The notes under the pieces are model-generated. The model worked only from the letters and a program-made list of their open reading frames with translations. It searched no databases and had not been told where the DNA came from. A stretch of 64,000 bases of DNA, taken from IMG/VR virus record IMGVR_UViG_3300028738_000008. One strand, given 5' to 3'. The position numbers were made by a program, and so were the translations under genes. Source of the DNA: a virus (lineage: Duplodnaviria > Caudoviricetes). Positions 2,074 to 29,610 of the stretch are shown here, piece by piece. How positions within the stretch are numbered: position 1 is the first letter of the stretch; each line of letters begins with the position of its first letter.

Positions 2074-4989
2074 ATGGCAAAACTAACTACTAATCTCATA
2101 ACAGGCATTGAGATGCTTCTAACGGGTTTCGATGTTAGCGGAAATACGGTCACCGAAACAGACCCCACAGTTCCAACATATGTTAAAGCCATAACGACTG
2201 GCGATATATCTAGCTGGAACTCAAAACAACAAGCTGGTAATTATTTAGTTCAAGGTGATGTTATTGCTACCGATGCTTTGGGTCGTAATAAATTGAAAAT
2301 GTACATAACTGTTAATCCGTCAAACGTTGACATGAATGCATGTAACATTACTATACCAGCTCTAAAATACAATAAGAAGGTAGCATTTTCGCATTCAAGT
2401 GACGATAGTGACATCCTTGTTCATTCTTTATGGCAAGAATATTGCAACGGACATTGGATAGATGATATACTGTGGATTAATAGTCAACCATTTCATGAAT
2501 TGACTCCAAGAACTACTGGTAGTTATGCTCCACGAATTTTACGAAGTACTGACGGATGCGGAAATGACATTAGATTTAGAATGACTTTAGCTTATCTGTC
2601 ATATAATGGTGCTGGAACTAATTTATTAACATCAACGAATCTTGCTTCACCATACTCACAGAAAACAGACATTCAAAAAATGCTTGATTTTTTTGGCGAC
2701 ATATCTAATCATGGTCAAGGTATTCCCAATGGCGGTAAACTTGGCGTTGATGGCGACTGGTATGACTCATTAACTGGAACAGAAAATAACTTTAATACAA
2801 ATATGGGATTCAAGCCCGCCACAGTCTGTCAGGCTGACGGCGATATAAATTATTTGTATGCTGCGCAGATTATGGACGAGATTTATATGATGACAGATAA
2901 TCTGGTAAAATATGACCCATTTAATGCCGCTGATAACGCTGCGGACATAGATAAATTATGTATCAACAGACGATCCATAGTAAGCATGATATCATTTACA
3001 GGTAATACAACAGACGTTCAAACAAGCTTAATTGCTGCTCATAATGCATGCGTAGCAGACCCTTCAAAAAGATATTGGTTAATTAGCGGCGGACATAATT
3101 GGTCAGCATCGGCAAATATGCATAATGACGCCGTAGGCTTTCTTAATTATATTCATGATCATTATGGCGCAGGCGGCGACGATTCCATTTGGTTTGCAGG
3201 TATGTCAGAAATCTACGAATATTTGTTTTTAAGAAAACTTATAAAGAATAATATTGTGAAAACAATTTCAGGCAATACAATAATGTTTGAGTTTGAAATC
3301 CCAGATCCTTATAATGTGTCGTGGAAGGAATTATCATTCCTTATATCTGGAATCGCAAATATGAATGACGTTATCACATTCAGCGTTGATGGGCCAGCAT
3401 ATGGCGTATCCAAGGCTATTAATGACTCGTCATTATTGGTGAATATTGATTACAATAAAAACAGTAAAGCATTAGCTGAAAAGTATTTGGCTTTAGCTAT
3501 TGCATCCCCAACAAGTGAGAGAGTTGCTGATGCATATTATTTTATAAATAGACTCAACCCAAATATCAACTCGGTGTTAAGAAGTAAATTATCAACATAT
3601 GCAATAGCACCAACATTAAACTCAATCGTTATCAATAATAATGACACCTCAACCGCAAATAGATTGGTAACAATATCTTTAAGTTATACTGGCTACATGT
3701 CCGAATATATGGTATCTGAAACATCAACATTTTCAGGTGCTACTTGGAATGTGTTAACAACAACATCATTTCCATATACTTTCGCAACAAGTATCATTGA
3801 GACAAAAACGATATATGTGAAAATTAGAAATGCTTATGGCGTGTCAGCAACTATGGTCGATTCAATTAGTTATCTTGGCTTAGTGTTATCATTTAATTCA
3901 GTTATTATTAATTCTGGCGCAGGTACTACACAAACTGCTGAGGTGGTTGTGTCTACGACATATAGTAATAGTACGCCGACATACTATAGAATTGGCGAAA
4001 CACCCGATCTATCAACAAATCTTTGGATTACATGGACTGGATCGCAAATATCCTATAACTTAACAGCATTGGGAACACGAACCGTATACGTTCAATTACA
4101 GGATAATATCACAACAACAAATACCCTTAGTGACTCGATTCTATATTCGCCAATTGATCTTAAATCGGTTATAATTAATAGTGGCTCAACATCAACCCCC
4201 GATCAAATAGTACACATTGCATTTAATTACTTAGGATATCCTACTGATTATATGCTATCGGAAAATGCTGACTTTTCGGGTGCTACATGGACTCAGTGGA
4301 TAGGAGGCTCAGGATCAACCGTCACGTTTACTCTTAGTTTGAATAACGGTGTAAAAACGGTATATGGAAAAATGCGAGACATTAATAGTTATGAGAGTGT
4401 TGTTGTTAATGATACAATATCATTAGCGATTGCATCTGCAAAAAGAATGAAAGCAAGTTTAACAACGTATAGTGGAACATCGCCATTTGTCAGTTTAGTA
4501 TCAAATGGCGAAACTTGGAATCAAGGAAAACCATCAGTTACTTCAAAAGCATTGAAGGATACAAATGGTAATGCATACTGTAGTGTTATAGCATCATACA
4601 CTGGCATAATATCAGCATCTTTACCAATTCCTATGACTGGCACAGTTTATGACGCCGTGTTGTCAGGTGGGCTTGTATGGTACACAGGATCGCCAGTGGT
4701 TTACACTATACCGTTTATTATTACATTCACAGGTTTGGTTGTTGGTAAAATAATAAGAGTTAAAGTATTTGGCACTGATAACAGATCAACCGAGCAACAT
4801 GGTGCAGTGACTATATCTGGCATTGGTTCTGAAACGCAGGCAATAAATCCTAAATATAATGTATCGAATATAAACATATTTGAAAACGTTGTAGTGCCAA
4901 GCAACGGTAGTATTACACTTAGTTTAGTTGGCGTTACGCCTGATACTAAAACTTGCATTCAGATTGTTGAATTTGAAGAAGTGGGTTAA
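2074..4989 (+). CDS. Large protein with a polysaccharide-deacetylase-like domain and three beta-rich Ig-like repeats (putative virion/adhesion protein)
   Basis: PALKYNKKVAFSHSSDDS, DISNHG and ISGGH motifs; repeats LNSIVINNN/FNSVIINSG/LKSVIINSG...FSGATW. Confidence 0.6.
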   Translation: MAKLTTNLITGIEMLLTGFDVSGNTVTETDPTVPTYVKAITTGDISSWNSKQQAGNYLVQGDVIATDALGRNKLKMYITVNPSNVDMNACNITIPALKYNKKVAFSHSSDDSDILVHSLWQEYCNGHWIDDILWINSQPFHELTPRTTGSYAPRILRSTDGCGNDIRFRMTLAYLSYNGAGTNLLTSTNLASPYSQKTDIQKMLDFFGDISNHGQGIPNGGKLGVDGDWYDSLTGTENNFNTNMGFKPATVCQADGDINYLYAAQIMDEIYMMTDNLVKYDPFNAADNAADIDKLCINRRSIVSMISFTGNTTDVQTSLIAAHNACVADPSKRYWLISGGHNWSASANMHNDAVGFLNYIHDHYGAGGDDSIWFAGMSEIYEYLFLRKLIKNNIVKTISGNTIMFEFEIPDPYNVSWKELSFLISGIANMNDVITFSVDGPAYGVSKAINDSSLLVNIDYNKNSKALAEKYLALAIASPTSERVADAYYFINRLNPNINSVLRSKLSTYAIAPTLNSIVINNNDTSTANRLVTISLSYTGYMSEYMVSETSTFSGATWNVLTTTSFPYTFATSIIETKTIYVKIRNAYGVSATMVDSISYLGLVLSFNSVIINSGAGTTQTAEVVVSTTYSNSTPTYYRIGETPDLSTNLWITWTGSQISYNLTALGTRTVYVQLQDNITTTNTLSDSILYSPIDLKSVIINSGSTSTPDQIVHIAFNYLGYPTDYMLSENADFSGATWTQWIGGSGSTVTFTLSLNNGVKTVYGKMRDINSYESVVVNDTISLAIASAKRMKASLTTYSGTSPFVSLVSNGETWNQGKPSVTSKALKDTNGNAYCSVIASYTGIISASLPIPMTGTVYDAVLSGGLVWYTGSPVVYTIPFIITFTGLVVGKIIRVKVFGTDNRSTEQHGAVTISGIGSETQAINPKYNVSNINIFENVVVPSNGSITLSLVGVTPDTKTCIQIVEFEEVG

Positions 4990-5502: not shown

Positions 5503-5587
5503 CTAGGCGTAGCCCTGTAGTTGGTAGCAGTCCTGATTTGGGATCAGGCGTGGTAACACCTCGTGAGTTCGACCCTCACCGCTTAGA
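5503..5587 (+). tRNA. tRNA-Pro(TGG) with long variable arm
   Basis: Acceptor CTAGGCG/CGCTTAG; anticodon arm CCTGA-TTTGGGA-TCAGG; 14-nt extra arm GTG-GTAA-CAC; T arm GTGAG-TTCGACC-CTCAC. Confidence 0.85.
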
Positions 5588-5597
5588 CAAAATTTAT

Positions 5598-9365: not shown

Positions 9366-9438
9366 GCTCGGTTCATCTAACTGGTTAGGATAGGTGACCT
9401 TCAATCATCCAATACGGATTCAAGTTCCGTACCGAGTA
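9366..9438 (+). tRNA. tRNA-Glu(TTC)
   Basis: GGTGA-CCTTCAA-TCATC; GCTCGGT/ACCGAGT. Confidence 0.85.
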
Positions 9439-9532: not shown

Positions 9533-9605
9533 GGCTTAGTAGACCAACGGCAGAGTCATCAGACTTAAACCCTGTACAGTGTGGGTTCGAATCCCACCTA
9601 AGCTA
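9533..9605 (+). tRNA. tRNA-Leu(TAA), short variable region
   Basis: Loop CTTAAAC; GGCTTAG/CTAAGCT; A73; imperfect anticodon stem. Confidence 0.75.
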
Positions 9606-9612
9606 CAAATAT

Positions 9613-9686
9613 GGCTCAGTATCCCAATTGGCAGAGGAAGTTGACTCAAAAACAACTAGTTGTCGGTTCGAATCCGACTTGAGCTA
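9613..9686 (+). tRNA. tRNA-Leu(CAA), short variable region
   Basis: GTTGA-CTCAAAA-ACAAC. Confidence 0.8.
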
Positions 9687-9697
9687 CAATATAATAT

Positions 9698-9770
9698 GGA
9701 TCGGTAGACCAACGGCAGAGTCACTTGTTTTAGAAGCAAGCCAGTGAGGGTTCGAATCCCTCTCGATCTA
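9698..9770 (+). tRNA. tRNA-Leu(TAG), short variable region
   Basis: CTTGT-TTTAGAA-GCAAG. Confidence 0.85.
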
Positions 9771-9780
9771 CAATATTTAT

Positions 9781-9867
9781 GGGGAATTGATGGAATGGTA
9801 GACATCCTAGTTTTAGAAACTAGTGCGAAATAATAGTAGCGTGTGAGTTCGAGTCTCACATTCCTCA
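9781..9867 (+). tRNA. tRNA-Leu(TAG), long variable arm
   Basis: CTAGT-TTTAGAA-ACTAG; GGGGAAT/ATTCCTC. Confidence 0.9.
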
Positions 9868-9986
9868 CGCAATATTCAATGGGAACGCATGTGTTAACAT
9901 CGTGGCGTCCGTCACGTAGATGGGAAACAGAACAGGGAGCATGCCTAGAATCTCGTTTAGGGTTGGAGATTTACTTTAATAATTAT

Positions 9987-10088: not shown

Positions 10089-10178
10089 ACGTCTATGTCC
10101 GAGTGGCTTAAGGAACTGGTCTCCAAAACCAGCGTGGGTGACACCATATCCAAGGTTCGAATCCTTGTTGGCGTGCCA
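10089..10178 (+). tRNA. tRNA with Trp anticodon (CCA) on a Ser-like long-variable-arm body
   Basis: CTGGT-CTCCAAA-ACCAG; D region TGTCCGAGTGGCTTAAGGAA; 18-nt extra arm; G73; encoded CCA. Confidence 0.75.
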
Positions 10179-15112: not shown

Positions 15113-15184
15113 GCTCCTATAGCTTAATGGTAAAGCCTTCGACCTTTAATCGAATGACCCCTGAATCAGTATCAGGTGGGAGCA
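15113..15184 (+). tRNA. tRNA-Lys(TTT)
   Basis: TTCGA-CCTTTAA-TCGAA; variant T loop. Confidence 0.8.
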
Positions 15185-16089: not shown

Positions 16090-16161
16090 GGCTCGTTAGT
16101 TCAGCGGTTAGGGCGTCTGACTCTAAATCAGAAGGCATGGTTTCGAATACCATACGAGCCG
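16090..16161 (+). tRNA. Amber suppressor tRNA (anticodon CTA)
   Basis: TCTGA-CTCTAAA-TCAGA perfect arm; GGCTCGT/ACGAGCC; G73. Confidence 0.9.
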
Positions 16162-16175
16162 CAAATAATTATAAT

Positions 16176-23098: not shown

Positions 23099-23300
23099 AT
23101 AAATAAAATGCGGTGCTTCTATGAGGCATCGCATTATTTACTTTCACACAATTTTGATTACGGCTCAGATGAAATTGGAAAGCTAGTTATGATTGTCAAA
23201 CCGTCTAAATGTGTTCTCACAGGATGCGGCGATTTTTAATAAAGCATATATAAAAAAAATAAGTAAAATCTTGTGGTGTAAAGACGAACCGCATAAATAT

Positions 23301-23924
23301 ATGACAAATACACAAAAATTTGTAAAGCGAGAATTAGAGATTCTTGCAGCAACAGTTCCAGATGCAGTTATAACACCTTTCGCAAAAGAAATACTTGCTT
23401 TATGTGAAGCATTTGGGAACTCAGGGCAGAGTGGAGGTTCTGCGCCATATACAGCAAGCGTGCTTGCGCAAGCAATTAAGAAACTTTTACTCCAAGAGCC
23501 AATTTGCGACGTAACTGGACATGAGAATGAATGGATTAACGTTAGCGAAGTTTCTAATGACATTGACTTATATCAGAATTGTAGATGTAGTGCTTTATTT
23601 AAAAATAGCAAGGAGAGCAAAGCGAATTATTTGGATGCCATTGTTTGGAAGGGGACGGAAGCATATGACACATTTACAGGTAGAGTTTATATCGACGATA
23701 AAGACTTCGAACTGATTGGGAGTAGCCATTATGTGAAATTTCCGTTTAAACCAAAAACATTTTATATCGATGTGGTTCGAGTTCCAATTACAAAAGAATT
23801 GGCTGAAAGTAGAGGCATGCACTATATTGAAGACGGGTTAAAAGAATGTTACTATACTATTTTAAAAAATCCCAAACAATTGGAAAAGGTTTTTAAATAC
23901 TATGATAAAAGATGTATCGTCTAA
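23301..23924 (+). CDS. Hypothetical phage protein
   Basis: Likely start ATG 23301 (track start 23193). Confidence 0.75.
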   Translation: MTNTQKFVKRELEILAATVPDAVITPFAKEILALCEAFGNSGQSGGSAPYTASVLAQAIKKLLLQEPICDVTGHENEWINVSEVSNDIDLYQNCRCSALFKNSKESKANYLDAIVWKGTEAYDTFTGRVYIDDKDFELIGSSHYVKFPFKPKTFYIDVVRVPITKELAESRGMHYIEDGLKECYYTILKNPKQLEKVFKYYDKRCIV

Positions 23925-24271: not shown

Positions 24272-24375
24272 TGCCATGATCATCAAATGAGGCGACGAGA
24301 TTTTATTTTAATACTTCTCAAACTTTTATGAAAATCATACTATTTATATTTTTAAAACATACAAAAAAAACGAAA

Positions 24376-24522
24376 ATGAAAAGGAACATATCATCAGCAA
24401 CCATATCGGGAATTACATCGGGATCAATATCTCGCAATAGTAATGGTATGTCAAGATGTAATTTCATTTTTACAGGTATTAATACAGGCATACAAAAAAT
24501 AGATTGGGTTCTCTTAATGTGA
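24376..24522 (+). CDS. Leader peptide 4 MKRNISSATISGITSGSISRNSNGMSRCNFIFTGINTGIQKIDWVLLM (Ser/Gly/Thr/Ile/Asn/Arg/Met/Cys/Phe sensor)
   Basis: 36 of the 38 residues at positions 2-39 belong to the nine amino acids of the downstream tRNAs; may also start at 24328. Confidence 0.85.
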   Translation: MKRNISSATISGITSGSISRNSNGMSRCNFIFTGINTGIQKIDWVLLM

Positions 24523-24629: not shown

Positions 24630-24714
24630 GCAAGGCTAGCTAAGTGGTCGAAAGTAGGTGATTGCAAACCATCTGGAAGAAATTCCCTCACTGGTTCAAA
24701 TCCAGTGCCTTGCT
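24630..24714 (+). tRNA. tRNA-Cys(GCA) with long variable arm
   Basis: GCAAGGC/GCCTTGC; loop TTGCAAA; U73; 16-nt extra arm GGAA-GAAA-TTCC. Confidence 0.85.
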
Positions 24715-24734
24715 CATATCATATTGATAATCAT

Positions 24735-24810
24735 AGGGTTGTATCACCTCTGCCTGATAAGCAGTTGAAAGTGTAATGGTCACATGTGGGTTCAAGTCCC
24801 ATCCTCCCTA
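24735..24810 (+). tRNA. Atypical D-armless tRNA-Ile(GAT)
   Basis: AGGGTTG/CCTCCCT acceptor, TATCAC linker, CTGC-CTGATAA-GCAG, GTG-TAATGGT-CAC hairpin, T arm GTGGG-TTCAAGT-CCCAT. Confidence 0.65.
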
Positions 24811-24840
24811 CAACAAAGAAAAAATAAAGTTGCTTAATTT

Positions 24841-24866
24841 TGTAACCTTTTCAAAGTTTCTTCGTA
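24841..24866 (+). promoter_or_regulatory. Internal ECF-type promoter
   Basis: TGTAAC-N16-CGTA. Confidence 0.7.
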
Positions 24867-24942
24867 TAATAGAAAAAGATTTATGAGTACAAAAATTAAA
24901 TGATGATTTTTCGAACCATTGTAGTATTTATATTAAAATAGT

Positions 24943-25614
24943 ATGATGAAAGATCAAATTATCGAATTACGAAAATTGGGAAATTCGTACAACGAAATAG
25001 TAAGTAAACTTGGTTGTACAAAGTCAAATGTCTCATATCATTGTGGCAAATTAGGAATTAATTTACATAATGATAATCCGAAAAAAATAAGTGAACAAAT
25101 CGTAGAGTCAATAAGAAACGATAAAATTTCGTTGTCGTCTAAAGAGATTGCTTTAAAATATAATGTTAGCGTAAGTACAGTGAATAAATTTACAAAGATG
25201 AAGTCAAGGTCTTTAGATATAAAACCTGAAAGTAGCGTATGTTTAAATTGTGGTAAAGAAACACCGTATAGAAAAGAGAAACGATTTTGTAGCAATCAAT
25301 GCGGTGCTCAATATATACACAAATTGGCTTATAAAGATTTTTTAGAAAATAACGAAAAATATTGTGTTGGAAATTACACAGCTAAAAATTTTAAGGACTT
25401 TATTGTAGCTGAGCAAAATGATAAATGCTTGATATGTGGAATGTCAGCAATTTGGGAAAACAAAATATTAGTTTTCGTTTTAGATCACATTGACGGTAAT
25501 GCTTCAAATAACAAAAGAGAAAATTTAAGATTAATTTGTCCTAATTGCGATTCGCAAACAAGCACATTTAAATCGAAAACGAAGGTTTCAATGAGAAGAA
25601 ATTATAATAAATAA
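24943..25614 (+). mobile_element. HNH homing endonuclease with N-terminal HTH, inserted in the tRNA operon
   Basis: LDHIDGNASNNKRENLRLICPNCDSQT; CLNC...FCSNQC zinc finger. Confidence 0.9.
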
Positions 25615-25619
25615 TATAT

Positions 25620-25702
25620 GGAAGGTAGCATGCAGTGGTGCATAAGTGGCTTTGAACACCATGCCGATGTAAAAGTCGAGAGTTCGATTCTTTTACCTTC
25701 CG
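25620..25702 (+). tRNA. tRNA-Ser(TGA)
   Basis: GGAAGGT/ACCTTCC; loop TTTGAAC; long arm; G73. Confidence 0.85.
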
Positions 25703-25709
25703 CTTAGAA

Positions 25710-26015
25710 GTAAGATTAGTCTGAGACAAAGTACACGTCATGGCAACCACGCCAGCTTCTACACGCATAGCTGATTGATTAACAGAGTCATTCAGTCTGG
25801 TACTTAGAAGTAGTGTTAGCAATTGTTCTGTTTATTTGCTAATGATATTTATTAATTGCCGTTTCCGAATTGCTTAAGATGCTGCCATTAAGATTCTGTT
25901 TGGGACAATTAGAAAGGATGTGTTGAACTACCCGATTATAAAAGGTCTCCTGAGATTTTATGAATCTTTGTAATAAGGTTCGTGGTCGTGAGTAAGAGGC
26001 TCACATCGGAAATAA
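25710..26015 (+). ncRNA. Candidate structured ncRNA (about 300 nt) between tRNA-Ser and tRNA-Phe
   Basis: No credible ORF; hairpins CAGCT/AGCTG, TTAGCAA/TTGCTAA, GTGAG/CTCAC; long-range TTTCCGA/TCGGAAA. Confidence 0.35.
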
Positions 26016-26028
26016 AATATTTAAAATT

Positions 26029-26102
26029 GGGGAGGTAGCTCAGTTGGTAGTAGCGGTGGATTGAAGATCCACAGGTCGTCGGTTCAAGTCCGACTCTCCC
26101 CA
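26029..26102 (+). tRNA. tRNA-Phe(GAA)
   Basis: GTGGA-TTGAAGA-TCCAC. Confidence 0.92.
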
Positions 26103-26183
26103 CGAAAAACAATGGTGCTTAGTATTGTTACTTCAATGGATGAAACAAAACACAATGCTGCAAAATTCCTTGTTTTTATTATC

Positions 26184-26257
26184 GCAGTGATGGTGTTTAA
26201 TGGTTAGCATATAACCTTGCCAAGGTTGAGGTGGAAGTTCGAATCTTCTTCATTGCT
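26184..26257 (+). tRNA. tRNA-Gly(GCC)
   Basis: TAACC-TTGCCAA-GGTTG; U73. Confidence 0.9.
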
Positions 26258-26329
26258 CTTTTTTTATATTTATTATTTCGGTGATGAAATCTAAATATTT
26301 TTTTGATGTTCGCTCTTTGACATATTTTT

Positions 26330-26468
26330 GAGCAGATGTATCGATAACATAATAATCAATAGAATTATTGGCGCATGCTGTTATTTTTAAATTATCATTG
26401 ATCTGGGTTTGACGTAATTTTCTCTCGCCAAAAACAGGTAAATTAAATTTAATCCCGATCACCTGCTC
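26330..26468 (+). ncRNA. Candidate rod-shaped ncRNA (6S-like architecture)
   Basis: GAGCAG..ATCG / CGAT..CTGCTC closing stem, AT-rich bubble, inner TTGGCG/CGCCAA stem. Confidence 0.35.
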
Positions 26469-26481
26469 CACAAATTAAATT

Positions 26482-26567
26482 GCAGTAATCGCATAGTTGG
26501 TCGATTGCGCCAGCCTTCCAAGCTGGAAAGAGAAATCACGGCGAGGGTTCGAATCCCTCTTACTGCT
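26482..26567 (+). tRNA. tRNA-Gly(TCC) with long variable region
   Basis: CCAGC-CTTCCAA-GCTGG; 16-nt variable region; U73. Confidence 0.85.
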
Positions 26568-26583
26568 CAATAAATTGTTAATA

Positions 26584-26856
26584 ATGAAACTGAAAAACAT
26601 ATTGAAAGCCTTATGGGGTCAGTTACCAGCACAAAGAGCATTTAGGAATTTTTTTATCACTGGAAATGCTTTAGGCATGTTTAACATAAGAAGTCATCAG
26701 TGTGAAAATGGTACTCCAAAGGTTATGTACAATACCAGAGCCACAGCACAAAAAGCTGCTGATAGCATGGGTAAAAAAATGAATAAGCATTTCTCGGTTT
26801 ATAAATGTATCTATTGTGATGGGTATCACTTAGGTAAGAATAGAGATAATAAATAG
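26584..26856 (+). CDS. Hypothetical protein with YKCxxCxGYH motif
   Basis: ATG 26584; C-terminal zinc-finger-like motif. Confidence 0.7.
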   Translation: MKLKNILKALWGQLPAQRAFRNFFITGNALGMFNIRSHQCENGTPKVMYNTRATAQKAADSMGKKMNKHFSVYKCIYCDGYHLGKNRDNK

Positions 26857-26927
26857 TGGTATAGCTCAGTTGGTAGAGCATGGGTATCATAAGCCCTGTG
26901 TCATAGGTTCGATTCCTATTGCCGCTA
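26855..26927 (+). tRNA. tRNA-Met/Ile2(CAT)
   Basis: GGGT-ATCATAA-GCCC; paired 1:72 (elongator type). Confidence 0.85.
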
Positions 26928-26945
26928 CAAACTAATAAATATATA

Positions 26946-27176
26946 ATGGTAGAAAGTAAGTTTAATTCACACGGAAAATTGAAAATGGATAATGATACAA
27001 AAATCAAGGCTGGCGATACTGTTGAATACAGCTATGCTGATAATAACCCAAACGATAGAACAAGAAAAATGATCGTAACGCTTAGAGGCACTTGGGATGG
27101 TGATAAGGTTTCATTCAACGATAAGAAAAATACCGTAGTTAAAACTACTCATTGGCTAACATTAATAGAAGAATAA
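26946..27176 (+). CDS. Hypothetical protein
   Basis: ATG 26946, between tRNAs. Confidence 0.6.
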   Translation: MVESKFNSHGKLKMDNDTKIKAGDTVEYSYADNNPNDRTRKMIVTLRGTWDGDKVSFNDKKNTVVKTTHWLTLIEE

Positions 27177-27177
27177 T

Positions 27178-27315
27178 ATGCAAGAAAAAGAAGATGCTAT
27201 TGAGGAAAGGGATGATAAGCTTTCATACGAGAATTATAATCATGTTGATGGCAAATTTCATAAAGTAAGACGTAAGAATACGCATCTTACGCCAAAGAAG
27301 AAAAAACGAAAGTAA
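27178..27315 (+). CDS. Small basic hypothetical protein (45 aa)
   Basis: MQEKED...HLTPKKKKRK, translated by eye. Confidence 0.55.
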   Translation: MQEKEDAIEERDDKLSYENYNHVDGKFHKVRRKNTHLTPKKKKRK

Positions 27316-27323
27316 AAATATAT

Positions 27324-27413
27324 TGCGAGTTAGAGAAGTCAGGCCTATCTCACCAGTCTCATAAGCTGGAGTACCGTTTAAAAGTATCGTTGGTTCGAAT
27401 CCAGCACTCGCTT
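27324..27413 (+). tRNA. tRNA-Met(CAT), initiator-like 1:72 mismatch, long variable arm
   Basis: CCAGT-CTCATAA-GCTGG; 19-nt variable region. Confidence 0.8.
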
Positions 27414-27427
27414 CATTAAAAACACAC

Positions 27428-27512
27428 TGCGGAATGGTGTAATTGGCAACACACGAGGCTCATAACCTTGAGACATTAAATGCTTGTATTGGTTCGAATC
27501 CAATTTCCGCTT
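27428..27512 (+). tRNA. tRNA-Met(CAT), initiator-like 1:72 mismatch, long variable arm
   Basis: CGAGG-CTCATAA-CCTTG; 17-nt variable region. Confidence 0.8.
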
Positions 27513-27526
27513 CTATAATTATAATT

Positions 27527-27600
27527 GGTCGTGTGGCGCAATTGGTTAGCGCAATTGTCTTATACACAAAAGGTTGTGGGTTCAAGTCCCACCATGACCA
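27527..27600 (+). tRNA. tRNA-Ile(TAT)
   Basis: TTGT-CTTATAC-ACAA; GGTCGTG/CATGACC. Confidence 0.8.
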
Positions 27601-27612
27601 CAACAAATACAT

Positions 27613-27693
27613 GCTTAGTTAGCCAAGTGGCAAGGCAGCAGACTGTTAATCTGCCGAAGAAATTCATCGTAGGTTCGATCCCTACACTAAGCG
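27613..27693 (+). tRNA. tRNA-Asn(GTT) with long variable region
   Basis: GCAGA-CTGTTAA-TCTGC; 14-nt variable GAA-GAAA-TTC; G73. Confidence 0.88.
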
Positions 27694-27762
27694 CAAATAC
27701 TTTATATTTTTTGTTGCATATCTAATTTATTATCATTAAATTTGCAGCCTAAAACATTTAAT

Positions 27763-27987
27763 ATGATAGTAAAATATGTACATCATGACACTGAGGTAAG
27801 TGTGCAAGAAGAAATGCTTGGAAAACATCGTGAGCATTGCTTATGTTATCAGGGTTGTAAGTTCTTCAAACCTGAAACCAGAAAAGGAAATTGTGGCATT
27901 GCAAATGCCATTTATAAGAATTGCGTTCTTTACGGTGTTGTAACACCAGTTTGGGAATGTCCTAAATACGAGAAGGAAACTGTGTAA
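27763..27987 (+). CDS. Cys-rich hypothetical protein
   Basis: HCLCYQGC...C...C...WECP. Confidence 0.7.
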   Translation: MIVKYVHHDTEVSVQEEMLGKHREHCLCYQGCKFFKPETRKGNCGIANAIYKNCVLYGVVTPVWECPKYEKETV

Positions 27988-28235
27988 TGGATGAATTAAT
28001 ACCAGCACCTGAACAGAATATGTTCAACATTGAAGTTTATTTGGACGACGGAAGGGTATTCGAATACAAAGTAGCGTCAGCCGAAAAAGTTCGAGAACAT
28101 GCTCATGCCATTATCATGACAGGCTACAGGCATAATGATGGATTTTTATTTGAACATTATCCACCGCACAGAATCTTGAAGGTCAAGAGCAATAACATAA
28201 GCACTCAGTATAAAGACGTAACAAAAGGAACGTAA
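27987..28235 (+). CDS. Hypothetical protein
   Basis: Coupled ORF. Confidence 0.75.
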   Translation: MDELIPAPEQNMFNIEVYLDDGRVFEYKVASAEKVREHAHAIIMTGYRHNDGFLFEHYPPHRILKVKSNNISTQYKDVTKGT

Positions 28236-28540
28236 TGGAATTACAAAAATTGATTTTAGCCGAGGACGTTTACGACGCCTTGGAAACAGGTAAGAATTGT
28301 ACGATCAGAAAAGGTCGCAGAGACATTCAATTAGACAAGCTTTTATTTGAATCGCTTGACGAAAAAAGAACAACAGTCGTAAATGTCGTAATGACAATTC
28401 ATTGTAAGCTACAGCATATTCCAGACGAGTTTGTATGGAACGACGGATTCACAGGACATGAAAACATGCTTACAGAAATGAAAAGGTTTTATCCTGACAT
28501 TCAAATGGATACCGAATGTACTGTAATTATATTTGAATAA
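28235..28540 (+). CDS. ASCH/PUA-like domain protein
   Basis: GKNCTIRKG...DGF...LxxFYP pattern. Confidence 0.65.
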   Translation: MELQKLILAEDVYDALETGKNCTIRKGRRDIQLDKLLFESLDEKRTTVVNVVMTIHCKLQHIPDEFVWNDGFTGHENMLTEMKRFYPDIQMDTECTVIIFE

Positions 28541-28662
28541 TGAATTTCGAGACATTATTGGCAATAATTATAGCAATTCCATTTTCAATGATTTGTCTAC
28601 GTTGCACATTGAAAAATTGTGAGAATCCTTCATATGAATCATGGAGAATTGAGAACGAATAA
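28540..28662 (+). CDS. Small membrane peptide (40 aa)
   Basis: TAATG coupling; hydrophobic N-terminus. Confidence 0.4.
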   Translation: MNFETLLAIIIAIPFSMICLRCTLKNCENPSYESWRIENE

Positions 28663-28728
28663 AAATATAAATGCTGGAACAACTCTGTACGTGAGCCAGC
28701 TACTATTGCAATAGTAACGTACACTCAC

Positions 28729-28800
28729 GCCGATATCATATAATTGGTATTATGCTGGCTCTGTAACCCAGACATCGGGAATCGTCCTCTCGTATCGGCT
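28729..28800 (+). tRNA. tRNA-Thr(TGT)
   Basis: GCCGATA/TATCGGC Thr-type acceptor; loop TCTGTAA (atypical C33). Confidence 0.7.
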
Positions 28801-28806
28801 CAATAT

Positions 28807-28880
28807 GCATCCTTAGCTATAATTGGTAGAGCACCTGTTTAGTAAGCAGGGGGTTGTCGGTTCGAGTCCGTCAGGATGCT
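28807..28880 (+). tRNA. tRNA-Thr(AGT)
   Basis: CCTGT-TTAGTAA-GCAGG; GCATCCT/AGGATGC. Confidence 0.85.
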
Positions 28881-28901
28881 CAAACATTTAAATTAAAAAC
28901 A

Positions 28902-29126
28902 ATGGTAAATACATTAAAGGGTAAATTGATTAAAACTGTTATAAAGAGTGCTTGCAGAGCAAAATTTACTAAAGAGAAGGTGCAAGAGTATCTAAAGGGA
29001 TATTTAGCATTTGAGACAACTGTAACAAATTATTCGCTTGATGTAGATTCAGCATATTTTGATATTGTCTATGTGGACAATCATCAAAATCATTTAATTA
29101 GTGTTAATATAAAAATCGTAAAATAA
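28902..29126 (+). CDS. Hypothetical protein
   Basis: ATG 28902 after tRNA-Thr. Confidence 0.6.
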   Translation: MVNTLKGKLIKTVIKSACRAKFTKEKVQEYLKGYLAFETTVTNYSLDVDSAYFDIVYVDNHQNHLISVNIKIVK

Positions 29127-29133
29127 AAGTAAT

Positions 29134-29526
29134 ATGACAATTCAAGATCAGATCAACTTGGACTTGCACCAAGCAATGTTAAACAAAGACAAGGAACTTT
29201 TAACATTTTTAAGGGTTGTAGCCAGTGATTTTTACCTAAAAGGAAAGGTCATTGACGATGAAATGGCGAAGAAAGTTTTACGCACATTAAAGGAAGAAGC
29301 AACCATAATGAACAACCAATACGAAATTGACGTTATTGCTAAGTATTTGCCAGCATTATTAAGCGAAGCAGAGATCAAAGCACTCGTTATTGAGGCTATT
29401 AAAGCCAATGGCTTCGCTGGAATGAAAGACATGGGTAAAGTTATGGCTGAATTAAAAAAGTTGCCTACAGCCTCTCAAATTGACAATACTTATGCCAGTA
29501 AATTAACAAAGGAATTGCTAGCATAG
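29134..29526 (+). CDS. GatB/YqeY domain protein
   Basis: DLHQAMLNKD...KYLPALLSEAEI...KDMGKVM signature. Confidence 0.85.
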   Translation: MTIQDQINLDLHQAMLNKDKELLTFLRVVASDFYLKGKVIDDEMAKKVLRTLKEEATIMNNQYEIDVIAKYLPALLSEAEIKALVIEAIKANGFAGMKDMGKVMAELKKLPTASQIDNTYASKLTKELLA

Positions 29527-29534
29527 TAAAATAT

Positions 29535-29610
29535 GGAGGCGTATCACAACAATCTTCTAAATTGTTTTAGTGTAATTGGACTGATGTGGGTTCGACTCCC
29601 ATCGCCTCTT
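29535..29610 (+). tRNA. Atypical D-armless tRNA-Arg(TCT)
   Basis: GGAGGCG/CGCCTCT, TATCAC linker, AACAAT-CTTCTAA-ATTGTT, TTAGT-GTAATTGG-ACTGA hairpin, T arm GTGGG-TTCGACT-CCCAT. Confidence 0.65.

Follow-up and report, generated by a model that had tools for sequence, protein, structure and literature searches.

Among the transfer RNAs (tRNAs) that depart from the canonical cloverleaf, the D-armless tRNAs of animal mitochondria have lost the elbow contacts between G18G19 and the T loop and rely on adapted partner proteins. Their D-arm is wholly absent, and the molecule is described as flexible and less rigid than the canonical L (PMC7609411). The circularly permuted tRNA genes of Cyanidioschyzon merolae encode the 3' half upstream of the 5' half, a canonical tRNA being restored through a circular intermediate (PMC3978253). 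A 2020 review of non-canonical tRNAs contains neither a phage case nor a change of arm order (PMC7609411), and in a 2024 paper all known bacterial tRNAs are stated to be canonical cloverleaves. Here we describe two genes of an uncultured, tRNA-rich peat phage (34% G+C), found in a 64,000-nucleotide (nt) stretch of IMG/VR record IMGVR_UViG_3300028738_000008, the whole of which is called the window below. The two genes, c1 (24735-24810) and c2 (29535-29610), both on the + strand as are all their parts, belong to a class of phage genes that is a new structural variant of tRNA. No published description of this fold was found in full-text literature searches and reviews (subscription journals being outside their coverage).

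Compared with canonical tRNA-Arg and tRNA-Ile (RF00005), the phage class has the same 7-bp acceptor stem with its discriminator, the same anticodon arm with U33 and A37 and the same T arm, and it shares with them U8, A14, the R15-Y48 pair, G18G19 and A21, as well as A20 (in Arg) or U20 and A73 (in Ile). The difference concerns the D hairpin, which canonical tRNAs carry between positions 9 and 26 and which the phage class lacks there, the equivalent of positions 10-21 lying 3' of the anticodon arm. With the D-armless animal mitochondrial tRNAs, such as mt-tRNA-Ser(AGY) (PMC7609411, PMC9427863), it has in common the absence of a D hairpin after position 9 and a short connector leading from the acceptor stem to a lengthened anticodon helix; unlike them, it keeps the D-loop sequence and the Levitt pair, although relocated, has a fully canonical T loop, and is presumed to use ordinary bacterial enzymes as partners. 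Like the C. merolae genes it has a non-canonical order of segments, but its ends are in the normal places, and the internal transposition is expected to stay in the mature RNA. Allo-tRNAs (8/4 or 9/3 acceptor/T), tRNA-Sec and tRNA-Pyl (PMC5389517, PMC7609411) are natural cloverleaf departures as well and, like the phage class, largely metagenomic finds; in these, helix lengths vary while the order of arms is kept and no D-arm strand crosses the anticodon arm, as it does in the phage class.

ARAGORN called 33 tRNA genes in the window, all on the + strand, and made no call at c1 or c2. Both were aligned by the Rfam tRNA model RF00005, with ends identical to those given in the original prediction; c2 scored 33.1 bits and c1 22.8 bits, that is above and below, respectively, the curated gathering score of 29 bits. 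Model and sequence agree over the acceptor, anticodon and T arms, while the 15 model positions of the D-arm shrink to 4 nt (UCAC) and the variable region gains an insertion of 17 nt. Indeed, only those 4 nt lie between A9 and position 26, and the 10-13/22-25 hairpin is missing from that place. The shared layout that had been described from the letters held in all its arms: each gene has a 7-bp acceptor stem, a 5-bp anticodon stem with a 7-nt loop, and a 5-bp T stem with a TPsiC loop. The 5' portions are built alike, with a 7-nt acceptor strand followed by GUAUCAC (hence the TATCAC linker noticed at first) and a canonical anticodon arm, whose loop is CUGAUAA (anticodon GAU) in c1 and CUUCUAA (UCU) in c2; further downstream they have in common the stretch AGUGUAAU(U)GG and near-identical T arms, AUGUGGGUUC.A.UCCCAUC. 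A coding reading of c2, with an upstream ATG and a frame of 29 codons, was rejected because stops, judged by eye, break that frame in the homologous loci L002 and L003.

To collect homologues, IMG/VR was scanned with a pattern made of the blocks common to c1 and c2, which gave five homologues, all Arg-UCU and each placed in an array where ARAGORN found no canonical tRNA-Arg(UCU). A relaxed pattern, in which nothing was fixed but the anticodon loop, the UAAU and the T stem, gave 24 distinct viral members with the Arg-UCU loop and 13 distinct Ile-GAU members with the Ile loop, and a further scan, in which UAGU (G15) was fixed instead of UAAU (A15) and the nucleotide before G49 was left free, added 24 distinct members. 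The pattern scans of IMG/VR did not return the window's own contig. Altogether 77 distinct homologues from phage contigs (33 Arg and 44 Ile) were available. A family covariance model (R1) scored c2 at 88.4 bits, c1 at 64.5 bits and every canonical tRNA of the window at 28.9 bits or less; the resemblance of c1 and c2 is far beyond chance. The original prediction had proposed a covariance model and a comparison with ARAGORN: on the first count homologues with covariation were found, on the second ARAGORN misses both genes.

When the family model was run on the fetched loci and on five whole phage contigs, more members were retrieved, with the anticodons ACG and UCG (Arg) and UAU (Ile). No identity other than Arg (UCU, ACG, UCG) and Ile (GAU, UAU) scored above about 49 bits in approximately 1.2 Mb of tRNA-rich loci and the five whole contigs, whole collections not having been scanned blind to the anticodon. 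Since Arg-UCU and Ile-UAU differ by a single anticodon base, and only Arg and Ile turned up, the sequences suggest a single origin followed by shifts of anticodon. Carriers are phages of Actinobacteria, Firmicutes and Proteobacteria and phages of many metagenomes.

Cultured phages are among them. The Ile form is present, 100% identical, in 37 records of Streptomyces cluster BE1 phages (among them Jay2Jay, NootNoot and Samisti12), flanked by genes for a nucleotidyltransferase and an FtsK-like protein in a stretch that bears no annotation; in Jay2Jay it occupies NC_029098 75237-75313. The gene is unannotated in 38 of 40 listed records of Streptomyces phages, and the remaining two, both of EGole, call the corresponding 77 nt 'tRNA-Leu'. 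Listeria phage LPML1 and Vibrio phage 1.101.O carry Arg-UCU forms, also unannotated, beside their tRNA arrays. Megablast of the tRNA region of the window against cultured phages gave only a 60-nt match, to canonical tRNA-Arg genes. A scan of 185,579 prokaryote species, each represented by one genome, gave 91 loci for the Arg pattern, two of which are true members. The first lies on a 184-kb contig among genes for a T4-type topoisomerase II, an HNH protein and an RNA ligase, and because of these neighbours the contig is probably that of a phage binned into a metagenome-assembled genome (MAG). The second belongs to a MAG of a CPR bacterium (Candidatus Saccharibacteria) of 1.6 Mb in at least 185 contigs, of uncertain purity; a 15.8-kb contig of it carries two adjoining permuted tRNAs (L115:2181-2254 and L115:2298-2374), one with a UCU anticodon and U20 instead of A20, the other Ile-UAU, and this contig may be either cellular or that of a binned phage. 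Non-cloverleaf wiring of this kind is common in phages and is missed by standard tRNA finders.

The description of c1 and c2 as D-armless proved wrong, for a D-stem is present. A conserved helix pairs the three nucleotides that follow U8-A9-N with the three immediately 5' of UAAU(U)GG, so that CAC on the 5' side of the anticodon arm pairs with GUG on its 3' side in both window genes. In a structure-blind MAFFT alignment of 28 sequences (A1) this long-range helix is 90.5% paired, with double changes at all three pairs, and RNAalifold, unprompted, yields it from the structure-blind alignment. Across the 77 distinct sequences it is 96.1% paired, with three to four pair types at each position and compensatory changes giving ten fully complementary forms (CCC/GGG, CUC/GAG, CAC/GUG, ACC/GGU, CGG/CCG, CAG/CUG, UCC/GGA, GCC/GGC, CCA/UGG and CGC/GCG). 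The acceptor, anticodon and T stems covary normally across the same relatives. A mitochondrial-type D-armless tRNA does not fit a molecule in which a covarying 3-bp D-stem exists and the entire D-loop sequence lies downstream of the anticodon arm, and a circularly permuted gene does not fit one in which the acceptor stem is formed by 5' and 3' strands lying at the gene's opposite ends.

Written in canonical numbers, the order of segments is 1-9, then 22-25, 26 and 27-43, then a linker of 3-5 nt in place of 44-47, usually ending in A, then 10-21, and finally 48-76. After the linker come 10-12, U13, A14, R15, U16, (U17), G18, G19, N20, 1-3 nt and A21, directly followed by Y48 and G49. Segment 10-21 is thus transposed to the 3' side of segment 22-47, and the UAAU(U)GG stretch is a single-stranded equivalent of the D-loop.

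The core nucleotides are nearly invariant among the 77 sequences (U8A9 and U13A14 in 77/77, G18G19 and A21 in 76/77 each, with UUC(G/A)A in the T loop), so that the canonical tertiary-core set of U8, A14, R15-Y48, G18G19, A21 and T54-C56 is present, in permuted order. The pair 15-48 is A-U in 52 sequences, G-C in 24 and something else in one; A15 goes with U48 in 52 of 52 cases and G15 with C48 in 24 of 25, position 48 having been left free in both the UAAU and the UAGU scans. This covariation is that of the R15-Y48 Levitt pair, for which the core must be folded, and it is the strongest evidence that the canonical core survives. Judged by what is established on tRNA structure, the new joins of the chain look feasible. 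In the coaxial stack of D-stem and anticodon stem, strand 39-44 is continued by strand 10-13 across a chain break, and because the two abut, a short linker from 43 to 10 makes a natural bridge. At the levels of 13-22 and 12-23, U8 and A9 rest against the D-stem, and A21 and 48 have the 8-14 and 15 layers as neighbours; given these positions, joins from 9 to 22, via an unpaired N22, and from 21 to 48 look possible too.

In c1 (76 nt, no encoded CCA, a member of the phage Ile subfamily), the acceptor 5' strand AGGGUUG (24735-24741) pairs with 24803-24809 at five of seven positions, the mismatches being U5.U68 and U6.C67, and is completed by the discriminator A73 (24810). U8, A9, UCAC (assigned to 22-25, with the 3' strand of the D-stem) and C26 span 24742-24748, CAC pairing with the GUG at 24771-24773. 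The anticodon arm (24749-24765), with GAU at 24756-24758 and a stem that covaries across the family, is followed by the linker UGAAA and the GUG assigned to 10-12, the 5' strand of the D-stem (24766-24773), by the relocated D-loop strand U13 A14 A15 U16 G18 G19 U20 CAC A21 U48 (24774-24785) and by the T arm GUGGG UUCAAGU CCCAU (24786-24802). In c2, also 76 nt long and with no encoded CCA, the acceptor 5' strand GGAGGCG (29535-29541) pairs with 29603-29609, including a G1.U72 wobble (1-72 is G.U in 16/77 members), and the discriminator is U (29610). U8, A9, UCAC (22-25) and A26 (29542-29548) contribute CAC (29545-29547) to the long-range helix; then come the anticodon arm ACAAU CUUCUAA AUUGU (29549-29565, UCU at 29556-29558), the linker UUUA with the GUG of 10-12 (29566-29572), the strand U13 A14 A15 U16 U17 G18 G19 A20 CUG A21 U48 (29573-29585) and the T arm GUGGG UUCGACU CCCAU (29586-29602). 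In both genes the pairing of GUG with CAC is the one given by covariation and by RNAalifold.

The nucleotides of amino acid identity also agree with the anticodon. At position 20 of the relocated loop the Arg members have A (32/33) and the Ile members U (44/44), and A73 occurs in all 44 of the latter. A20 is the main determinant for bacterial arginyl-tRNA synthetase (ArgRS), Arg identity resting on A20, C35 and U/G36, while bacterial isoleucyl-tRNA synthetase (IleRS) uses A73, U20, G34 A35 U36, A37 and A38 and, in E. coli, also C4-G69, U12-A23 and C29-G41 (PMC9976931). With G18 G19 A20 and the anticodon UCU, c2 has the bacterial tRNA-Arg identity set; c1 has A73, U20 and the loop CUGAUAA, but its G4-C69, G12-C23 and U29-A41 differ from the E. 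coli stem determinants. In at least ten members CCA is encoded directly after the discriminator.

As had been noticed at first, no other Ile-GAU or Arg-UCU gene exists in the window, according to both ARAGORN and Rfam, only Ile-UAU and Arg-ACG being present, and the leader-4 open reading frame (ORF; 24328-24522) does contain the cognate codons (ATT three times, ATC and AGA once each). In the 29 long ORFs of the window, AGA makes up 56% of Arg codons and AUU plus AUC 67% of Ile codons; they are the commonest Arg and Ile codons of the phage. A 345-kb phage genome rated 100% complete (G001) has about 43 canonical tRNAs by ARAGORN, with CCG and CCT as its only canonical Arg anticodons, and UCU and ACG are present in it only as permuted genes, inside the tRNA array. 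The permuted genes fill holes in otherwise complete tRNA sets.

Taken together, these observations argue that c1 and c2 are real, conserved phage tRNA genes forming a family and not products of decay, as the original prediction had supposed when it proposed functional tRNAs with a rearranged order of parts; covariation, core and identity nucleotides all point the same way. We consider it likely, judging from sequence, that they are working Ile-GAU and Arg-UCU tRNAs with a rewired L-shaped core. In such a molecule the canonical 10-21, i.e., the 5' strand of the D-stem with the D-loop, follows the anticodon arm and precedes the T arm; the D-stem is the 3-bp long-range helix, enclosing the anticodon arm and continuous with it as one long hairpin, and the four-way junction of the cloverleaf becomes a three-way junction. 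From the top of this helix, U13 A14 R15 U16 U17 G18 G19 N20 .. A21 run as a single strand to Y48 and G49. Since every nucleotide of the canonical tertiary core is kept, we infer that the usual L shape would be reached through U8-A14, R15-Y48, the contacts of G18/G19 with the T loop, and A21. The transcripts would be matured by RNase P and the CCA-adding enzyme, ArgRS or IleRS would charge them, and the charged RNAs would decode AGA and AUU/AUC.

Several points weigh against this reading. The members are related by descent, so counts of paired cells overstate the number of independent events. The D-stem equivalent has only 3 bp, and in six Arg members a bulged G is needed to form it (UGG / C-G-CA). 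Single-sequence minimum free energy (MFE) folds of c1 and c2 miss the conserved structure. c1 has two acceptor mismatches and scores below the Rfam threshold, though its relatives are like it in both respects: the mismatches at 5-68 and 6-67 recur in the Ile loci L146, L172, L177 and L183, and because several Ile members repeat them they are taken as a trait of the lineage and not as decay. Jay2Jay and L002 hold a canonical Ile-GAU gene with the same anticodon beside the permuted copy (in L002 in tandem, permuted at 4514-4590 and canonical at 4604-4677, 13 nt apart, where the two architectures can be compared side by side), so a full set does not always depend on the permuted copy. Finally, no RNA data set was found among the sequencing runs searched, which were of peat metagenome DNA or contained small shares whose type is uncertain.

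As to why such a core should be kept, the original prediction had evoked escape from host defences. In this scenario the re-threaded core would be an adaptive counter-defence, by which decoders of Arg and Ile codons escape a tRNA-directed nuclease or toxin that reads the canonical path of the chain; the features read by RNase P, the CCA-adding enzyme, ArgRS/IleRS, EF-Tu and the ribosome would be kept, while the path of the backbone at the junction of D-stem and anticodon stem would be altered, and the enzyme escaped could be one of the host or the phage's own weapon against host tRNAs. The idea is reasonable because carriers invest in tRNA conflict, Jay2Jay encoding Ro, an RNA ligase and a polynucleotide kinase (PNK) and the window a Tad3 homologue, but it is tentative and, in our opinion, rather unlikely to be the explanation.

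The same conflict genes would suit a role outside translation, in which the tRNA-shaped RNAs would act as decoys for a tRNA-binding toxin or a host anticodon nuclease, have a regulatory task or serve as primers. The canonical anticodon loops would serve a decoy well, and the canonical genes kept by some phages alongside permuted ones of the same anticodon would also agree with it. For a decoy, however, neither A20 in Arg nor U20 and A73 in Ile would be required, nor an encoded CCA or an intact acceptor/T minihelix, and in the 345-kb genome the permuted genes are the sole carriers of UCU and ACG in an otherwise full set; we therefore regard such a role as improbable.

Much less credible is that c1 and c2 are D-armless tRNAs with a local hairpin in the variable region, comparable to the extra arm of class II tRNAs. 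A hairpin of this type can be drawn in both genes, GUG/CAC (3 bp) in c1, where it is included in the MFE fold, and UUAGU/ACUGA (5 bp) in c2, and the 'tRNA-Leu' label of the EGole homologue possibly arose from a long insert taken for a long variable arm. The register differs between the two genes, though, and in 28 relatives pairing reaches only 35% of cells with the c2 register and 48% with that of c1, so that the variable-position hairpin noted at first was rejected as a conserved feature, and with it a class II-type stem-loop. It would moreover need the GUG of the long-range helix, which is 90-96% paired and covaries, and in the Ile relatives its 3' 'NAC' is constant whatever the D-stem sequence.

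Slightly less probable again is that only the gene is permuted and that the transcript is cut and religated to the canonical order, for instance by a phage RNA ligase and PNK, which some carriers encode. The covariation of 10-12/23-25 and of 15/48 would be the same in either chain order. A return to the canonical order would nevertheless take three breaks and three specific ligations, as the two orders differ by an internal transposition instead of a circular permutation; beside the segment no motif of bulge-helix-bulge or intron-like type was noticed, no dedicated search having been made; and the gene seems adapted to a permuted chain, with a conserved linker of 3-5 nt that ends in A and with A21 joined directly to Y48 and G49. 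The least tenable reading, that of decaying or rearranged pseudogenes, could appeal to the c1 score and mismatches and to the failure of ARAGORN to call either gene, but 77 distinct homologues, conserved in phages of three bacterial phyla and in many metagenomes, speak against it, and the compensatory changes in four helices and one tertiary pair amount to a practical refutation.

If c1, c2 and their relatives are working tRNAs with a rewired core, the same tertiary core is obtained from a differently threaded chain, presumably used by the ordinary bacterial translation machinery; they would represent a natural experiment in tRNA folding topology and a ready-made scaffold for the engineering of orthogonal tRNAs. 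Should the counter-defence scenario be true, they would be natural, translationally active non-cloverleaf tRNAs on bacterial ribosomes. The class is a systematic blind spot in phage annotation, and because annotation misses it, phage tRNA counts and inferences on codon supply are biased. It is also directly testable, since cultured Streptomyces, Listeria and Vibrio phages carry copies.

Among the neighbours of the permuted genes, a YqeY-like ORF (29134-29526) ends 8 nt before c2, and c1 is closely followed by an ORF with a weak HNH-plus-helix-turn-helix resemblance (24943-25614). On another contig, the gene directly after a permuted tRNA-Arg clearly encodes an HNH endonuclease (L062:3309-3743). 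The Tad3 homologue of the window, a Pfam match (E 4.7e-20) to this inhibitor of type I Thoeris at 23193-23924, is encoded just upstream of the fourth tRNA operon.

Other tRNAs of the window are unusual as well. Those for Cys, Gly-UCC, Met (two) and Asn (24630-24715, 26482-26568, 27324-27414, 27428-27513 and 27613-27694) have inserts of 11-15 nt in the variable region, which is normally short in these types, and are otherwise canonical; in the Cys tRNA the insert reads ggaagaaauucccu, and a stem of GGAA/UUCC capped by a GAAA loop could form within it. Two tRNAs are unusually long, one for Pro (86 nt, 5503-5588) and the Trp tRNA (90 nt, 10089-10178). Three tRNAs with atypical T loops, found by Rfam and missed by ARAGORN (15113-15184, 9366-9438 and 28729-28800), resemble Lys-UUU, Glu-UUC and Thr-UGU, and a weak tRNA-like element (17 bits) at 25621-25701 possibly has an anticodon loop of 9 nt. 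Three tRNA-Leu genes (UAA, CAA and UAG) at 9533-9771 are only 74-75 nt long and do not have the usual bacterial long variable arm, while a fourth, at 9781-9868, measures 88 nt. Lastly, a tRNA with the amber suppressor anticodon CUA is present besides the full set both in the window (16090-16162) and in the 345-kb genome (approximately 226,577-226,649, corresponding to L348:8777-8849).

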